Assembly: GCF_055900595.2 (NCBI RefSeq)
Contig: NZ_CM148325.1
Strand: one strand, 5' to 3'
Length of the DNA stretch: 64,000 bases
Made by a program: the position numbers and the translations under genes. Below the pieces are notes generated by a model, which ran no database searches, was not told the origin of the DNA, and saw only the letters and a program-made list of their open reading frames with translations. This document shows positions 1,739 to 25,062 of this stretch, in pieces (the first letter of the stretch is position 1; each line of letters opens with the position of its first letter).

Positions 1739-1841
1739 ATACCTGACCTTATAAGCCAACTACTTATGGTCAGATGGCGCAGACTATATCACTGAAGCCC
1801 TACGCTAACAAATAGCACGACTCTCTGTAGCCGGATTATCC

Positions 1842-3038
1842 TCAGCTTGCGAGACGCGTCACCTCTTTTCTGGCGACTTCACGCGCGTTCGTATCAACAG
1901 ATAACACATCGTCCACGCATTGTGGTTCGCGCATATCCATTTTTTCCAGTACGGATAAATTCAACGCGGCGATATCCGTAAAGCGGATTTGTTGCGCAAG
2001 AAAGGCTGCAACGGTGATTTCGTTTGCGGCATTCAATGCAGTCGTCGCAGCCTGGCCTTGTTCGAACGCGTCCATTGCCAGTTTAAGGCATGGATAGCGA
2101 TCATAATCCGGTGCGGCAAATGTCAACGCACTGAGTTTGCAAAAATCCAGCGGCTTCACACCAGAGTTCACGCGATTCGGCCAGGCCATGGTGTGGGCAA
2201 TTGGCGTACGCATATCCGGTTCACCCAACTGCGCCAGAACACTGCCGTCCTGATAACGCACCATTGAGTGAATCACTGACTGCGGATGAATCAGCACTTC
2301 CATCTGGCTGGCACTGGCGCTAAACAACCAACGCGCTTCAATGTATTCCAGACCTTTGTTCATCATGGTAGCCGAATCGACAGAAATTTTACGCCCCATC
2401 GACCAGTTCGGATGACGGCAGGCTTGATCCGGCGTCATTGTTGCCAAATCGCGCAATGGCGTCTCACGGAAAGGGCCACCAGACCCGGTAAGCAAAATGG
2501 ACACCACGCCATTTTGCTCAAGGTCAGCGTATCCCAGATTATGCTGGATAGGTTGCGGTAAACTCTGAAAAATGGCGTTATGTTCGCTATCGACTGGTAA
2601 CAATTGCGCTTTGCTCTGCTTTACGGCGTCCATAAACAGACGTCCGCAAGTGACCAGTGATTCTTTATTGGCCAGCAAAATGGTTTTACCCGCGCGGATC
2701 GCAGCAAGCGTAGGTAACAGCCCAGCAGCGCCAACAATGGCTGCCATCACCTGATCAACATCCTCAAGCGCTGCCATATCGCAAGCGGCTTGTTGCCCAC
2801 TTAAGACTTCGGTGCGGCTACCCTGTTGCTGTAGCATCGTTTTAAGAAGTTTCGCACTCGCTTCATCGTCCATTACGGCATAGCGGGGAGAGAATTCCAG
2901 GCACTGCTCTACCATGCGAGTGACATTTTTGCCTGCCACCAGCGCAACTACGCGGAAGTGTTCGGGATTATGGCGCACCACGTCCAGCGTGCTGCAACCA
3001 ATCGAGCCGGTCGAGCCCAGAATGGTGAGTTGCTTCAT
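1842..3038 (-). CDS. dxr: 1-deoxy-D-xylulose 5-phosphate reductoisomerase
   Basis: 398-aa ORF, N-term [21 protein letters not shown] (NADPH-binding motif); synteny frr-dxr-uppS. Confidence 0.92.
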
Positions 3039-3065
3039 GAAACATCCAGAGTTGAGACAGAATAA

Positions 3066-3117
3066 AAAGCAAAACGCCGCCAGCCGATCCGCAAGGATCT
3101 ACTGAGCGGCGTTTTTT
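3066..3117 (-). terminator. stem-loop terminator after frr
   Basis: AAAACGCCGC ... GCGGCGTTTT long hairpin with U tracts on both strands. Confidence 0.6.
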
Positions 3118-3130
3118 GTCGTTCAAGAAA

Positions 3131-3688
3131 TCAGAACTGCATCAGTTCTGCTTCTTTGTCTGCCAGCGCCGCTTCAATTTTCTTGATTGCAGCATCAGTC
3201 AGTTTCTGTACATCGTCCTGAGAACGGCGATCGTCGTCTTCGCTGATCTCTTTATCTTTCAACAGTGCTTTCACTTTGTCGTTCGCGTCACGACGCACGT
3301 TACGTACTGCAACACGCGCTTGTTCTGCTTCACCACGAACGATTTTGGTCAGATCTTTACGACGTTCTTCCGTCAGCGGCGGCAGCGGAACACGAATGTC
3401 GCTACCCGCAGAGTTCGGGTTCAGGCCAAGATCGGACGCCATAATCGCTTTTTCAACGGCCGGAGACATTGAACGATCAAACACGTTGATTTTCAGAGTA
3501 CGGGAATCTTCTACCGTTACGCTTGCCAGCTGACGCAGCGGCGTCGGCGTGCCGTAATATTCCACGACAATGCCATCCAGCAGGCTGGGAGAAGCACGAC
3601 CCGTGCGTATTTTGCTGATTTGGGTTTTGAACGCTTCTACGCATTTGTCCATGCGTACTTCAGCATCTTTTCTGATATCGCTAATCAC
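3131..3688 (-). CDS. frr: ribosome recycling factor
   Basis: 185-aa [24 protein letters not shown]; synteny pyrH-frr. Confidence 0.92.
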
Positions 3689-3979
3689 GTTACGAATCCT
3701 TGAAAACTTGTCTCAGTCAGACCAGACAGTCACACACAGTGGAAGTGTGCTAAGTATAGCCCTGATTAAACATATTACGGGTAATCGTCTGGATTATTAG
3801 GCTATTTTATTTGCCATTTTGGCACCGGGCAGTGCTCGCCATCCTCACGTACTTGTGTACGCTCCGGTTGCTGCGCGCTGGCCGTGACCAAACTACCTGC
3901 AACAATAACGCCTTATAACCAGACTTACGCCCCCGCGATACTTACGCGGAATCTTACCCTTATTTATCCATCACGGGAA

Positions 3980-4705
3980 TTATTCCGTGATTAAAGTCCC
4001 TTCTTTTTCACCCATTACCACACGGCGCAGCGCACCCGGTTTGTTCATGTTGAAAACACGAATCGGTAATTTATGGTCACGAGCCAGCGTGAAGGCCGCC
4101 AGGTCCATGACTTTCAGCTCTTTTTCCAGCACTTCGCTGTAAGTCAGTTGCTCGTACATCGTTGCGGTTGGATCTTTCGCCGGATCAGCAGTAAACACGC
4201 CGTCAACTTTGGTTGCTTTCAACACCACATCAGCTTCAATTTCGATACCACGCAGGCAAGCTGCAGAGTCGGTGGTAAAGAACGGGTTACCTGTACCGGC
4301 GGAGAGGATCACCACACGATTGTTGCGCAACAGGCTAATCGCTTCTGCCCAGCTGTAGCTGTCGCACACGCCATTCAATGGAATAGCGGACATCAGACGA
4401 GCGTTCACATAGGCGCGGTGCAGTGCATCACGCATTGCCAGGCCGTTCATTACGGTCGCCAGCATCCCCATGTGGTCGCCCACAACGCGGTTCATACCCG
4501 CTTTCGCCAGACCAGCGCCACGGAACAGGTTACCCCCACCAATCACCACACCAACCTGAATACCCAGTTCAACCAGTTCTTTGATTTCCTGAGCCATGCG
4601 ATCCAGTATGCTTGCATCAATACCGAAGCCTTCCGTGCCCTGCAGAGCTTCGCCACTCAACTTAAGCAGAATGCGTTTATAGACGGGTTTTGCATTGGTA
4701 GCCAT
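3980..4705 (-). CDS. pyrH: UMP kinase
   Basis: 241-aa [24 protein letters not shown]; synteny tsf-pyrH-frr. Confidence 0.92.
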
Positions 4706-19995: not shown

Positions 19996-21435
<1,440 letters not shown>

Positions 21436-21641
21436 TCATACAAATAAGATGACGGCATTTTACTCGCACGTTCCATGAAAATCCTTTGCAAAGCGTAATG
21501 TTTCAAATGCACAAAACTTTTATACTCTATGAAATCAGGATTGCACCAGCACAAGCAACCTGACGTTTGACGAGTATTTAACTTGTTATGAATAACATAG
21601 AATAGCAGCCATTCACTTTTTCTACGAATCAGGAACCCTCC

Positions 21642-22922
21642 ATGAGTAAGTCTGAAAATCTATACAGCGCAGCGCGCGAGCTGATCCCTGGCGGTGTGAA
21701 CTCCCCTGTTCGCGCCTTTACCGGCGTGGGCGGCACTCCACTGTTTATCGAAAAAGCGGACGGCGCTTATCTGTACGATGTTGATGGCAAAGCCTATATC
21801 GATTATGTCGGTTCCTGGGGGCCGATGGTGCTGGGCCATAACCATCCGGCGATCCGCAATGCCGTGATTGAAGCCGCCGAGCGTGGTTTAAGCTTTGGTG
21901 CACCGACCGAAATGGAAGTGAAAATGGCGCAACTGGTGACCGAACTGGTCCCGACCATGGATATGGTGCGCATGGTGAACTCCGGCACTGAAGCGACAAT
22001 GAGTGCCATCCGCCTGGCCCGCGGTTTTACCGGTCGCGACAAAATCATTAAATTTGAAGGTTGTTACCACGGTCACGCTGACTGCCTGCTGGTAAAAGCC
22101 GGTTCTGGCGCACTCACGTTAGGCCAGCCAAACTCGCCGGGCGTTCCGGCAGATTTCGCCAAACATACATTAACCTGTACTTATAACGATCTGGCCTCTG
22201 TACGCGCCGCGTTTGAGCAATACCCGCAAGAGATTGCCTGTATTATTGTCGAGCCAGTAGCAGGCAACATGAACTGTGTTCCGCCGCTGCCAGAGTTCCT
22301 ACCGGGTCTGCGCGCACTGTGCGACGAATTTGGCGCATTGCTGATCATCGATGAAGTGATGACCGGTTTCCGCGTGGCGCTGGCTGGCGCGCAGGATTAT
22401 TACGACGTGGTGCCAGACCTCACCTGCCTGGGCAAAATCATCGGCGGTGGAATGCCGGTAGGCGCATTCGGTGGTCGTCGTGATGTGATGGATGCGCTGG
22501 CCCCGACCGGTCCGGTCTATCAGGCGGGTACGCTTTCCGGTAACCCGATTGCGATGGCAGCCGGTTTCGCCTGTCTGAATGAAGTCGCGCAGCCGGGCGT
22601 TCACGAGACGCTGGATGAGCTGACAACACGTCTGGCAGAAGGTCTGCGGGAAGCGGCAGAAGAAGCGGGAATTCCATTGGTCGTTAACCATGTTGGCGGC
22701 ATGTTCGGTATTTTCTTTACCGACGCCGAGTCCGTGACGTGCTATCAGGATGTGATGGCCTGCGACGTCGAGCGCTTTAAGCGTTTCTTCCATATGATGC
22801 TGGACGAAGGTGTTTACCTGGCACCGTCAGCGTTTGAAGCGGGCTTTATGTCTGTGGCGCACAGCATGGAAGATATCAATAACACCATCGATGCTGCACG
22901 TCGGGTGTTTGCGAAGTTGTGA
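21642..22922 (+). CDS. hemL: glutamate-1-semialdehyde 2,1-aminomutase
   Basis: 426-aa [29 protein letters not shown], class-III aminotransferase. Confidence 0.92.
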
Positions 22923-22934
22923 TCCAGCATGGTT

Positions 22935-23022
22935 TGTCGGATGCGGCGTAAACGCCTTATCCGACCTACAGATCAGGACCGTTTGTAGGCCCGATAAGAC
23001 GCCACAGCGTCGCATCGGGCAT
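22935..23022. repeat. REP (palindromic unit) pair / BIME between hemL and fhuB
   Basis: TGTCGGATGCGGCGTAAACGCCTTATCCGACCTACA and inverted copy GTAGGCCCGATAAGACGCCACAGCGTCGCATCGGGCAT. Confidence 0.8.
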
Positions 23023-23079
23023 CCGTTGCCGCGTAAAAGCTTTATCCATCCAGGAGTTAAGGGCCGTTATATGGAAAAA

Positions 23080-25062
23080 TTAACGGCTCTGCTTTCTCAA
23101 CAAATAGATAAAATACGGCGCGCCGATAAAGGTCGACAGCAGCCCCGCTGGGATCTGGAATGGAAACAGCACCATCCGCCCACACCAGTCAGCGAACACC
23201 AGCAGTAATCCCCCCACCAGCGCCGAAATCACAATATGCGGCATCGTCCGTCGAAAGCCCATCATCCGTGCGATATGCGGTGCCATCAGGCCAACAAAAC
23301 TCAACGGCCCGATGGTCATTGTCGCGGTCGCCGTCAGGCAAGCCGCCAGCAGCAGTAGCGCAATTCGCGTCGGCGTCAGCGCCATTCCCACGGCTCGTGC
23401 GGTATCACCTCCCAGCGGTAAAATGGTCAGCCAGCGGCGGCACAGCGGGGTAATCGCCAGCAAAATCACCATCACAATTCCGGTGCGCCAGACCTGCGCC
23501 TCGGTCGCGTTGTAGGTCGAACCGGAAATCCAGGTCAGAACTTGCGCCATTCGCGGGTCACCACTTGCCTGCAACATCATCAAAAGCATGGTGAACGCGG
23601 TACTTAACGCCATCCCCGCCAGTAACATGCGGTGTGGAGAAAATCCACCGCGTCCGGCGGCGATCATAATGATCAACAGCGTCACCGCCGCCCCGAGACT
23701 TCCCGCGGGTAACAGCCAGCCAAAGGCATTACCCGGCACCAGAAACAGCATTAACACCACGCCAAACGCCGCGCCGGAGCTAATCCCCAGCACTTCCGGG
23801 CTTGCCATCGGGTTGCCGGTCAGCCGCTGAATAATACAGCCCGCCACCGCCAGCATGACGCCCGCAAACAGCGCCGCCATAATTCGCGGCCAGCGCCAGG
23901 GCATCAAATCCTCGAGCAGCGCCCCGCTCGCCCACGTCCAGCCGTGCGCATCACGACCAAACGACAGCGCCACCACCACAGCAATTATCAGCAGCACACC
24001 GCCAGCAAGGGCAAACGCCAGCACATGTTGGCGTTCAGTCGCGACACGATCGTTGGCCTTCATATCCGGCGCACTGATGCTGCGTAAACGCGGCAGCAGC
24101 CACAGTAACAGCGGCGCACCTATCAACGCCGTCATCGAACCGGTAGAAACTTCCATCCACACGCGAGTCAGCCAGAGGATGATTTGATCGGAAAGCCAGA
24201 GGATCAGCGCACCAATCAGTGACGCCAGCAGCAGTCTTGGCAGCAGACGCCGCGCCCCCAGCATTTTTGCCAGCAGCGGCGCGAACAACCCGATAAAGCC
24301 GATAATCCCCACCGCGTTCACCAGCAGAGCACTGATGACTATCGCCAGCGACAGCGCCGCCAGACGCGCGAGCGATAAAGCCAGTCCGAGATTACGCGCC
24401 ACGCCATCATCAAGCCCCATCAGGGTTAATGGACGAAGTAGCAGTAACGTCAACATCACGCCGCCCAGCAGCTGTGGCCATAAACGCTCAACGCCGCCCC
24501 AGTCGGTTTGCGTCAGCGTTCCGGTACTCCACAGGAACATGCTTTGTAGCTGGTCGTGATGGAAGATAACCAGTAACTGATTGATTGCCCCGCAATAAAG
24601 GCTCACCACAAGCCCCGCGAGGATCAGCGTTACCGGAGAAAGCCGTTTCCCCCACGCGACGCCAAAGACAATTAAGCCAACCACACAAGCCCCTGCCAAT
24701 GCAGCAAACTGGCTCGCCATAGCACCAGGGATCGCCCAGAGCGTGGTGACGGTAATCCCCAGTTGCGCGCCTGTAGCAACGCCCAACGTGGTCGGTTCCG
24801 CCAGCGGGTTACGTAACACTTGCTGAAACAGCACGCCCACCAGTCCCAGACCCGCGCCCACCAGCAGCGAAATCGCCAGACGTGGCAGCAAGCTGTAGTG
24901 AAAAATCATCTGCTCGATGACGTCAATATCCGGCGACCAGGCAGCCTGCGCCCACTGGCTACGCGGCAGCGCCTGAGAGAAGTTCATCCAGGTGAGCACC
25001 GCTGCGGCAACCACCAACAGCGCCAGCAATAATGCCGGGAAAAGCGCAATACGTTTACTCAC
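23080..25062 (-). CDS. fhuB: ferric hydroxamate ABC transporter permease
   Basis: 660-aa ORF, duplicated FecCD-type permease halves; operon fhuA-C-D-B. Confidence 0.9.
   Translation of the reverse strand: MSKRIALFPALLLALLVVAAAVLTWMNFSQALPRSQWAQAAWSPDIDVIEQMIFHYSLLPRLAISLLVGAGLGLVGVLFQQVLRNPLAEPTTLGVATGAQLGITVTTLWAIPGAMASQFAALAGACVVGLIVFGVAWGKRLSPVTLILAGLVVSLYCGAINQLLVIFHHDQLQSMFLWSTGTLTQTDWGGVERLWPQLLGGVMLTLLLLRPLTLMGLDDGVARNLGLALSLARLAALSLAIVISALLVNAVGIIGFIGLFAPLLAKMLGARRLLPRLLLASLIGALILWLSDQIILWLTRVWMEVSTGSMTALIGAPLLLWLLPRLRSISAPDMKANDRVATERQHVLAFALAGGVLLIIAVVVALSFGRDAHGWTWASGALLEDLMPWRWPRIMAALFAGVMLAVAGCIIQRLTGNPMASPEVLGISSGAAFGVVLMLFLVPGNAFGWLLPAGSLGAAVTLLIIMIAAGRGGFSPHRMLLAGMALSTAFTMLLMMLQASGDPRMAQVLTWISGSTYNATEAQVWRTGIVMVILLAITPLCRRWLTILPLGGDTARAVGMALTPTRIALLLLAACLTATATMTIGPLSFVGLMAPHIARMMGFRRTMPHIVISALVGGLLLVFADWCGRMVLFPFQIPAGLLSTFIGAPYFIYLLRKQSR

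Follow-up and report, generated by a model that had tools for sequence, protein, structure and literature searches.

What fills the space between hemL and fhuB in Escherichia coli, and what might it do for the two transcripts that run into it from opposite sides? In the window analyzed here (the whole stretch of 64,000 nucleotides), hemL, which codes for glutamate-1-semialdehyde 2,1-aminomutase, lies on the plus strand at 21642-22922, as indicated by its open reading frame and its match to NCBIfam TIGR00713 (685.6 bits against a cutoff of 527); the hemL annotation is also present in matching E. coli records. The final gene of fhuACDB, fhuB, which codes for the permease of the ferric hydroxamate ABC transporter, occupies 23080-25062 on the minus strand, according to its open reading frame, its match to NCBIfam NF007865 (FhuB, 1414 bits), and the annotation. 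The two genes are convergent, and their stop codons (TGA at 22920-22922 for hemL; 23080-23082, minus strand, for fhuB) enclose a spacer of 157 nt (22923-23079), the whole of which is taken up by a REP doublet and a decayed half-unit. The hemL transcript continues into the REPs, and the fhuB transcript enters them from the other side. At the edges, a left flank of 13 nt (TCCAGCATGGTTT, 22923-22935) runs from the hemL stop codon to the base of the first predicted REP stem, and a right flank of 11 nt (ATATGGAAAAA, 23069-23079) precedes the fhuB stop codon; the former is invariant in 10 aligned alleles of this length and the latter is likewise invariant in the long alleles. REP and BIME elements have been familiar in E. 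coli for decades. The element described here is of that known kind and is also present in K-12, and its value as a discovery is small. The 601-nt stretch around the REP pair is identical to that of another E. coli record, NZ_CP098223.1. Compared with K-12 over 21642-25062, the window is unusually divergent, with identities of 96.4% in hemL, 91.1% in the spacer, and 94.3% in fhuB, and only 14 of 5,431 records have at least 99% identity to it over 22700-23300.

The first unit is a y-type REP at 22936-22969 on the minus strand, the strand on which it reads GTAG first. On the plus strand its sequence is GTCGGATGCGGCGTAAACGCCTTATCCGACCTAC, reading GTCGGATG...CCGACCTAC and ending in CTAC at 22966-22969. 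It matches the y consensus at 30 of 32 positions by BLAST and at 33 of 35 when aligned by hand to the published consensus TGCCGGATGCGGCGTAAACGCCTTATCCGGCCTAC (quoted in PMC11208160); in the hand alignment, both mismatches belong to a single compensated stem pair, in which C-G has become T-A (GCC/GGC to GTC/GAC). The second unit is a z2-type REP at 22985-23020 on the plus strand (GTAGGCCCGATAAGACGCCACAGCGTCGCATCGGGC, with GTAG at 22985-22988). It matches the z2 consensus at 29 of 32 positions by BLAST, and by hand it differs from the published consensus in one compensated stem pair, T-A to C-G (CCT/AGG to CCC/GGG), and in two loop changes. The two REPs are inverted relative to each other and stand tail to tail, separated by a short, S-like linker of 15 nt (AGATCAGGACCGTTT, 22970-22984), delimited by sequence and folds. 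Consensus matching was performed with blastn-short, using y, z1, and z2 consensus sequences confirmed from PMC11208160. As an internal control, the same sequences were compared with the REP pair at 57745-57842, the second in the window, where 33 of 34 (y) and 29 of 29 (z1) positions agree, which indicates that they are valid.

Both units are imperfect palindromes, with 14-nt arms that are 86% complementary and an internal stem mismatch or loop. The y REP is predicted to fold into a hairpin of -21.1 kcal/mol (z, -5.9), and the z2 REP into one of -22.1 kcal/mol on the plus strand (z, -4.9) and -22.5 kcal/mol on the minus strand; for each unit, none of 200 shuffles folds as well. The whole y-linker-z2 doublet reaches -47.9 kcal/mol (z, -6.6), and its predicted fold consists of two separate hairpins with a small central one, an 8-bp stem that the 15-nt linker can form together with the adjoining CTAC and GTAG. 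According to published work, a REP, of which K-12 has 584, is defined by the tetranucleotide GTAG at the 5' foot of its palindrome, read as CTAC on the opposite strand (PMC3333891). The features of the E. coli family are all found here: an imperfect palindrome of 30 to 40 nt with a G+C-rich stem-loop and an internal mismatch, GTAG/CTAC feet, a consensus match, an extragenic position, and multiple copies. The 601-nt query that contains the REPs matches a median of 5 places per genome by way of its REP part. These observations confirm that the hemL-fhuB element is a REP pair of the E. coli family, far above chance. The original prediction of two inverted REP units in this convergent spacer is therefore borne out by the palindromes, their inversion, and the flanking genes; its limits (22935-23022) were right to within 1 to 2 nt, and the consensus alignment that it had named as a check returned no poor match.

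The doublet is followed by a third unit, overlooked in that prediction, which is oriented like the first y REP and has lost its palindrome. It consists of a y-like remnant at 23021-23056 and an S-like linker remnant at 23057-23068 on the minus strand. The evidence for it is the identity between 23022-23068 and 22937-22983 at 34 of 47 positions, a value reached by no other 47-mer of the window; 20,000 dinucleotide shuffles never exceeded 27 of 47. Its fold amounts to only -5.3 kcal/mol (z, -0.25), so the capacity to fold has been lost. The head of the z2 REP adjoins the head of the decayed y unit with about 1 nt between them. Consequently, with a decayed y-S half-unit beside a y-S-z2 unit, the spacer seems to preserve what is left of one and a half BIME-2 units.

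Two classes of BIME have been described: BIME-1 combines z1 and y REPs with a long L linker, often with an IHF site, and in BIME-2 a short S linker joins z2 and y REPs, the unit usually being repeated in tandem (PMC3333891). Since a y REP, a 15-nt linker, and a z2 REP follow each other in tail-to-tail order, the hemL-fhuB element is a single BIME-2-type unit, y-S-z2. It resembles BIME-2 in its inverse y and z2 REPs, in its extragenic position, and in its short, variable linker, which differs between strains while the REPs are conserved. It is unlike BIME-2 in having one intact unit and a decayed y-S remnant rather than a tandem array. With BIME-1 (RIB/RIP) elements it shares two inverted REPs placed tail to tail in a convergent spacer, with the y REP common to both, but it has z2 instead of z1, a linker of 15 nt instead of 35 nt, and no IHF consensus. 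A BIME-1-type pair is present elsewhere in the window, in the convergent gcd-cueO spacer, where a y REP (57745-57778), a 35-nt linker, and a z1 REP (57814-57842) make up the control pair mentioned above. A further point of comparison is the REPIN of Bertels and Rainey, a REP doublet forming a hairpin that has been proposed as the unit mobilized by a RAYT. The hemL-fhuB doublet is similar in its inverted REP pair, short spacer, conserved stems, and presence or absence at an orthologous site. It differs in pairing REPs of unlike subtype (y with z2), whose complementarity over 18 nt is only 83% and which are predicted to fold into separate hairpins rather than one long one. E. coli REP palindromes have been associated in published work with the REP-associated tyrosine transposase TnpA-REP (RAYT), which requires GTAG and a stem mismatch for recognition and cleavage (PMC3333891). 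Both sequence requirements are present in the hemL-fhuB REPs; no RAYT gene was noticed within the window, and the link to a RAYT is by family only. The K-12 RefSeq feature table lists no repeat_region features.

Comparison across E. coli revealed that the spacer exists in two forms. Of the complete E. coli genomes that gave a match, 5,425 in all, 1,701 (about 31%) carry the 157-nt REP allele, including K-12 MG1655 and BL21(DE3), and 3,714 (about 68%) have a 34-nt allele (TGATTTTGCCTCGCCCACCGGGCGAGGCATTTTA), which is also that of O157:H7 (524-557 of the extract). The long and the short spacer have no sequence in common. For hemL, the short allele provides a canonical intrinsic terminator: TTTTATT comes directly after a 10-bp stem that has 8 G-C pairs, and the predicted energy is -20.6 kcal/mol, so that the REP stem-loops without a U-tract (about -21 kcal/mol) and the short-allele stem-loop with one are energetically equivalent. 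In the short allele the T-run lies on the hemL side only, and fhuB has no obvious terminator there. It had been predicted that REP copy number at this site varies by strain, and that comparing spacer lengths across E. coli would reveal it. The locus is indeed polymorphic, with two lengths, 157 and 34 nt, but what varies is the presence or absence of the REP spacer, together with rare insertions of IS621, and no change in REP copy number was detected. All 25 long alleles sampled for length measure 157 nt, unlike the variable tandem copies of BIME-2, with rare variants still possible among the 1,701. The BL21(DE3) record (NZ_CP053602.1) additionally has fhuA split by IS2 into two pseudogene fragments (20290-23869 of the extract).

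The long allele itself comprises two haplotypes, the rare type of the window and the K-12 type, which differ at 14 of 157 positions. None of these differences falls within the 58 stem and tetranucleotide positions (hypergeometric P = 0.0011), and 5 fall within the 15-nt linker. The linker, with 5 of its 15 positions unlike K-12, is the most variable part of the element, and the stem of the y REP is unchanged across the 10 long alleles whose spacers were aligned. The REP stems are thus conserved, and the linker and loops are divergent. It is important to consider that this conservation, seen between two haplotypes only, might be due to gene conversion or to maintenance linked to a RAYT, and not to any benefit for the host. 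A count of covariation across REP units from many genera found compensatory changes in 6 of 7 outer-stem pairs, but most of these units had been selected for perfect 7-nt arms, which makes the count partly circular and not an independent proof of conserved pairing. In the long allele of E. coli ET729, one arm of the z2 stem has T for C (GCCTGAT, the consensus z2 base) at alignment column 80; the change is uncompensated in the other arm, leaving a G-T (G-U) or A-C opposition, and the exact IS621 11-mer is lost. Between strains, the hemL and fhuB ends that border the spacer diverge by 2% to 6%, whichever spacer allele is present, from which it follows that the region is mosaic and that the polymorphism is not recent. 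These mosaic flanks suggest frequent recombination around the fhu operon.

IS621 is a bridge-RNA recombinase of the IS110 family. The z2 REP contains, at 22985-22995 on the minus strand, the 11-mer ATCGGGCCTAC, which is exactly what the target-binding loop in wild-type IS621 bridge RNA specifies; the corresponding donor is ACAGTATCTTGTAT (PMC11208160 and its supplement). The features of a natural IS621 target are thereby present in this unit: the motif ATC(A/G)GGCCTAC, the CT core, and a position inside a REP. An insertion at precisely this site is present in E. coli N96, one of the few genomes with neither of the two spacer alleles; there IS621 lies within the hemL-fhuB spacer (3051-4487 of the extract), and the long-allele spacer around it matches that of the window. 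Its junctions on the minus strand (ATCGGGC-CT-TGTATTAT... and ...ACAGTAT-CT-AC) locate the insertion within the z2 REP, at the CT core of ATCGGGCCTAC, and match the donor. A junction query detected this insertion in one further genome, whose linker is of the window type, and matched five more at 93.8% identity, as would be expected if their linker is of the K-12 type. One of these five, CFSAN064035, carries IS621 between hemL and fhuB (1790-3225 of the extract), with a match to the junction from the y REP and linker through GTAG into IS621. In total, about seven genomes in the collection matched the junction, and the insertion was verified in at least two strains. N96 and CFSAN064035 differ both in long-allele haplotype and in transposase protein variant, and this one REP therefore seems to have received IS621 independently at least twice. 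The insertions also mean that a REP-specific mobile element recognizes the z2 unit as a REP. The locus resembles known natural IS621 sites in that z2 carries the exact target and receives natural insertions at the CT core. It is unlike them in that most natural and experimental insertions occur at ATCAGGCCTAC, the exact-match sequence having been hit at only two sites in BL21(DE3) (Durrant et al. 2024, PMC11208160). Gene names and BL21 coordinates looked up in the supplement of that study gave no entry for the hemL-fhuB locus. For genome engineering, an exact natural IS621 target in the z2 REP helps to predict wild-type insertion sites in K-12 and BL21.

We consider it highly probable that the element is best explained as a REP doublet (a BIME-2-type unit with a decayed half-unit) that would protect the 3' ends of the two transcripts, with possible additional effects in dampening translation and in binding gyrase. 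These RNA, translation, and gyrase roles are those of the class, from which we infer them for the hemL-fhuB REPs. REP hairpins are known from published work to resist PNPase and RNase II, and stabilization of mRNA 3' ends by the stable hemL-fhuB hairpins, acting as a barrier to 3' exonucleases, is plausible. Each of the convergent transcripts would continue into the spacer, where the first REP encountered would be in its ...CCUAC orientation. PNPase and RNase II would then be stopped by two or three stable stem-loops, and the 3' ends of the hemL and fhu mRNAs would be both defined and stabilized by the REP stem-loops. Termination itself would occur further downstream, in a diffuse and probably Rho-dependent manner. 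The C/G ratio of the hemL transcript climbs to 1.6 to 1.9 between 120 and 240 nt downstream of the REPs (window background, 1.11), which is weakly consistent with a rut site.

An effect on translation may also be considered. The passage of PMC12306157 that cites Liang et al. (2015) states that ribosomes stall at REPs lying no farther than 15 nt from a stop codon. For hemL, the distance from stop codon to y stem is 13 nt, inside that range; for fhuB, 59 nt separate the stop codon from the nearest intact REP, which is thus outside it. The y stem may thus hinder ribosomes terminating on hemL and slightly lower the output of HemL. However, the hairpin of the short allele is even nearer to the hemL stop codon, at about 7 nt, so that it is not obvious why the REP allele in particular should affect translation. 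At the DNA level, gyrase cleavage sites are over-represented in BIME-2, mostly at y REPs and independently of transcription (PMC6379681). The y-S-z2 unit would belong to the class that gyrase preferentially binds and cleaves, and binding of gyrase to the hemL-fhuB REPs is plausible. The supplementary files of that study make no mention of hemL or fhuB, and a literature search combining hemL, fhuB, and REP found no account of this locus. Whatever its role, the element is missing from two thirds of E. coli and therefore has no essential function. The natural pair of alleles can be used to test how REPs affect 3'-end formation, mRNA stability, and translation termination.

The alternative with the most in its favor is that the doublet is a passenger or relic, a selfish or RAYT-maintained repeat lodged in the spacer without a host-selected role, whose effects on mRNA and topology are incidental. 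We regard this as possible but rather unlikely. Its absence from the 3,714 genomes that have a plain terminator instead is what such an account expects, as is the decay of the third unit. Further evidence comes from the outgroups, which were gathered by a scan of contigs with HemL; the matches listed came from Citrobacter and from genera farther removed, with Escherichia, Shigella, and Salmonella absent from the list. Among the matches listed, 14 of 51 convergent spacers of other Enterobacteriaceae contained units with GTAG and a palindrome, 8 of them on both strands, as detected with a search that was relaxed after a stricter version had found almost nothing. Such REP-like units of their own are present in the hemL-fhuB spacers of other Citrobacter and of many other Enterobacteriaceae, and still more of the listed spacers hold other repeats, of the CCCTCTCCC/GGGAGAGGG type. 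Consequently, the spacer appears to be a permissive and recurrent landing place for short palindromic repeats. In Kosakonia and Siccibacter, the hemL-fhuB spacers contain tandem REP arrays, and genus-specific REP pairs occur elsewhere; those of Enterobacter, Pseudocitrobacter, Buttiauxella, and Leclercia contain repeats of the CCCTCTCCC...GGGAGAGGG or GGGTGAGGG type. The outgroup repeats sometimes adjoin a AAAACGGCAACC...GGTTGCCGTTTT terminator. On the other hand, the concentration of all 14 substitutions in the 99 positions outside the stems and tetranucleotides argues against this account, the allele persists on several divergent flanking haplotypes, and a convergent spacer without any other terminator needs some 3' structure. 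The passenger account is, moreover, compatible with the protection of 3' ends by the REP doublet and does not exclude it.

A less probable reading, which we consider doubtful, is that the two spacer forms constitute an old and possibly selected two-state polymorphism, in which one state is an intrinsic terminator and the other a REP doublet that moves both operons to Rho-dependent termination with REP-protected ends and provides a landing site fitting the IS621 bridge RNA exactly. Among the matches listed, the spacer of two Citrobacter species measures 36 nt and contains a GCCTCGC...GCGAGGC hairpin resembling the short allele of E. coli, which is suggestive, though no proof, of an ancestral terminator state. 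A similar swap is thus seen within Citrobacter, where two species have the short GCCTCGC hairpin and others have REP pairs. If this were true, the locus would be a natural experiment on terminator turnover.

That the REP hairpins are themselves an intrinsic, Rho-independent, bidirectional terminator, releasing RNA polymerase for both transcripts, seems to us very unlikely. Stable G+C-rich hairpins do stand directly after both genes, a true intrinsic terminator occupies the same position in the other allele, and a passage of PMC6061677 (its reference 32) attributes a direct role in termination to REPs in some cases. However, a scan of 22700-23300, spacer included, returned no terminator-like site on either strand, and no U-run was seen by eye after either REP hairpin. 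Lacking a U-tract, these hairpins are not intrinsic terminators, and the direct role that has been reported is Rho-dependent attenuation. The suggestion that the REPs serve as terminators hence fails in the intrinsic sense, the short allele passing the same test as a positive control, and protection of 3' ends by the REP doublet is the reading that we retain.

It is more improbable still that the element is a gene for a REP-derived small RNA, comparable with the nucleoid-associated naRNA4 from REP325. Partial matches to Rfam RF02564 (naRNA4) were obtained at 22931-22966, 22988-23051, and 22935-23021, and about 80% of E. coli REPs are described as transcribed in a passage of PMC4550694. These matches score 31 to 40 bits against a gathering threshold of 59.5 and represent common REP sequence; furthermore, 22700-23300 contains no promoter-like site, and the element lies within the 3' untranslated regions of two convergent genes. 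Apart from the subthreshold naRNA4 (REP325) matches, the permissive Rfam search gave only chance matches to mir-456 and DicF, and a small RNA gene was rejected as a candidate.

Finally, a BIME-1-like IHF site (a RIB/RIP element) bending the DNA between the operons, for which it can be said only that REP pairs of another type have such sites, is extremely improbable, and with it the IHF binding that had been predicted, because IHF sites are a feature of the long L linker found in BIME-1 (PMC3333891), whereas the partner here is z2 rather than z1, the 15-nt linker lacks an L motif, and 22923-23079 contains no match to the IHF consensus WATCAANNNNTTR with up to one mismatch. In annotation, the appropriate label for the locus is one y/z2 pair of BIME-2 type accompanied by a decayed third unit, and not an IHF site or an intrinsic terminator. 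The positive control for the IHF search was the gcd-cueO BIME-1, whose linker carries the consensus exactly (AATCAATGTATTG, 57791-57803). The z1 REP of that same element also contains the common IS621 target ATCAGGCCTAC.
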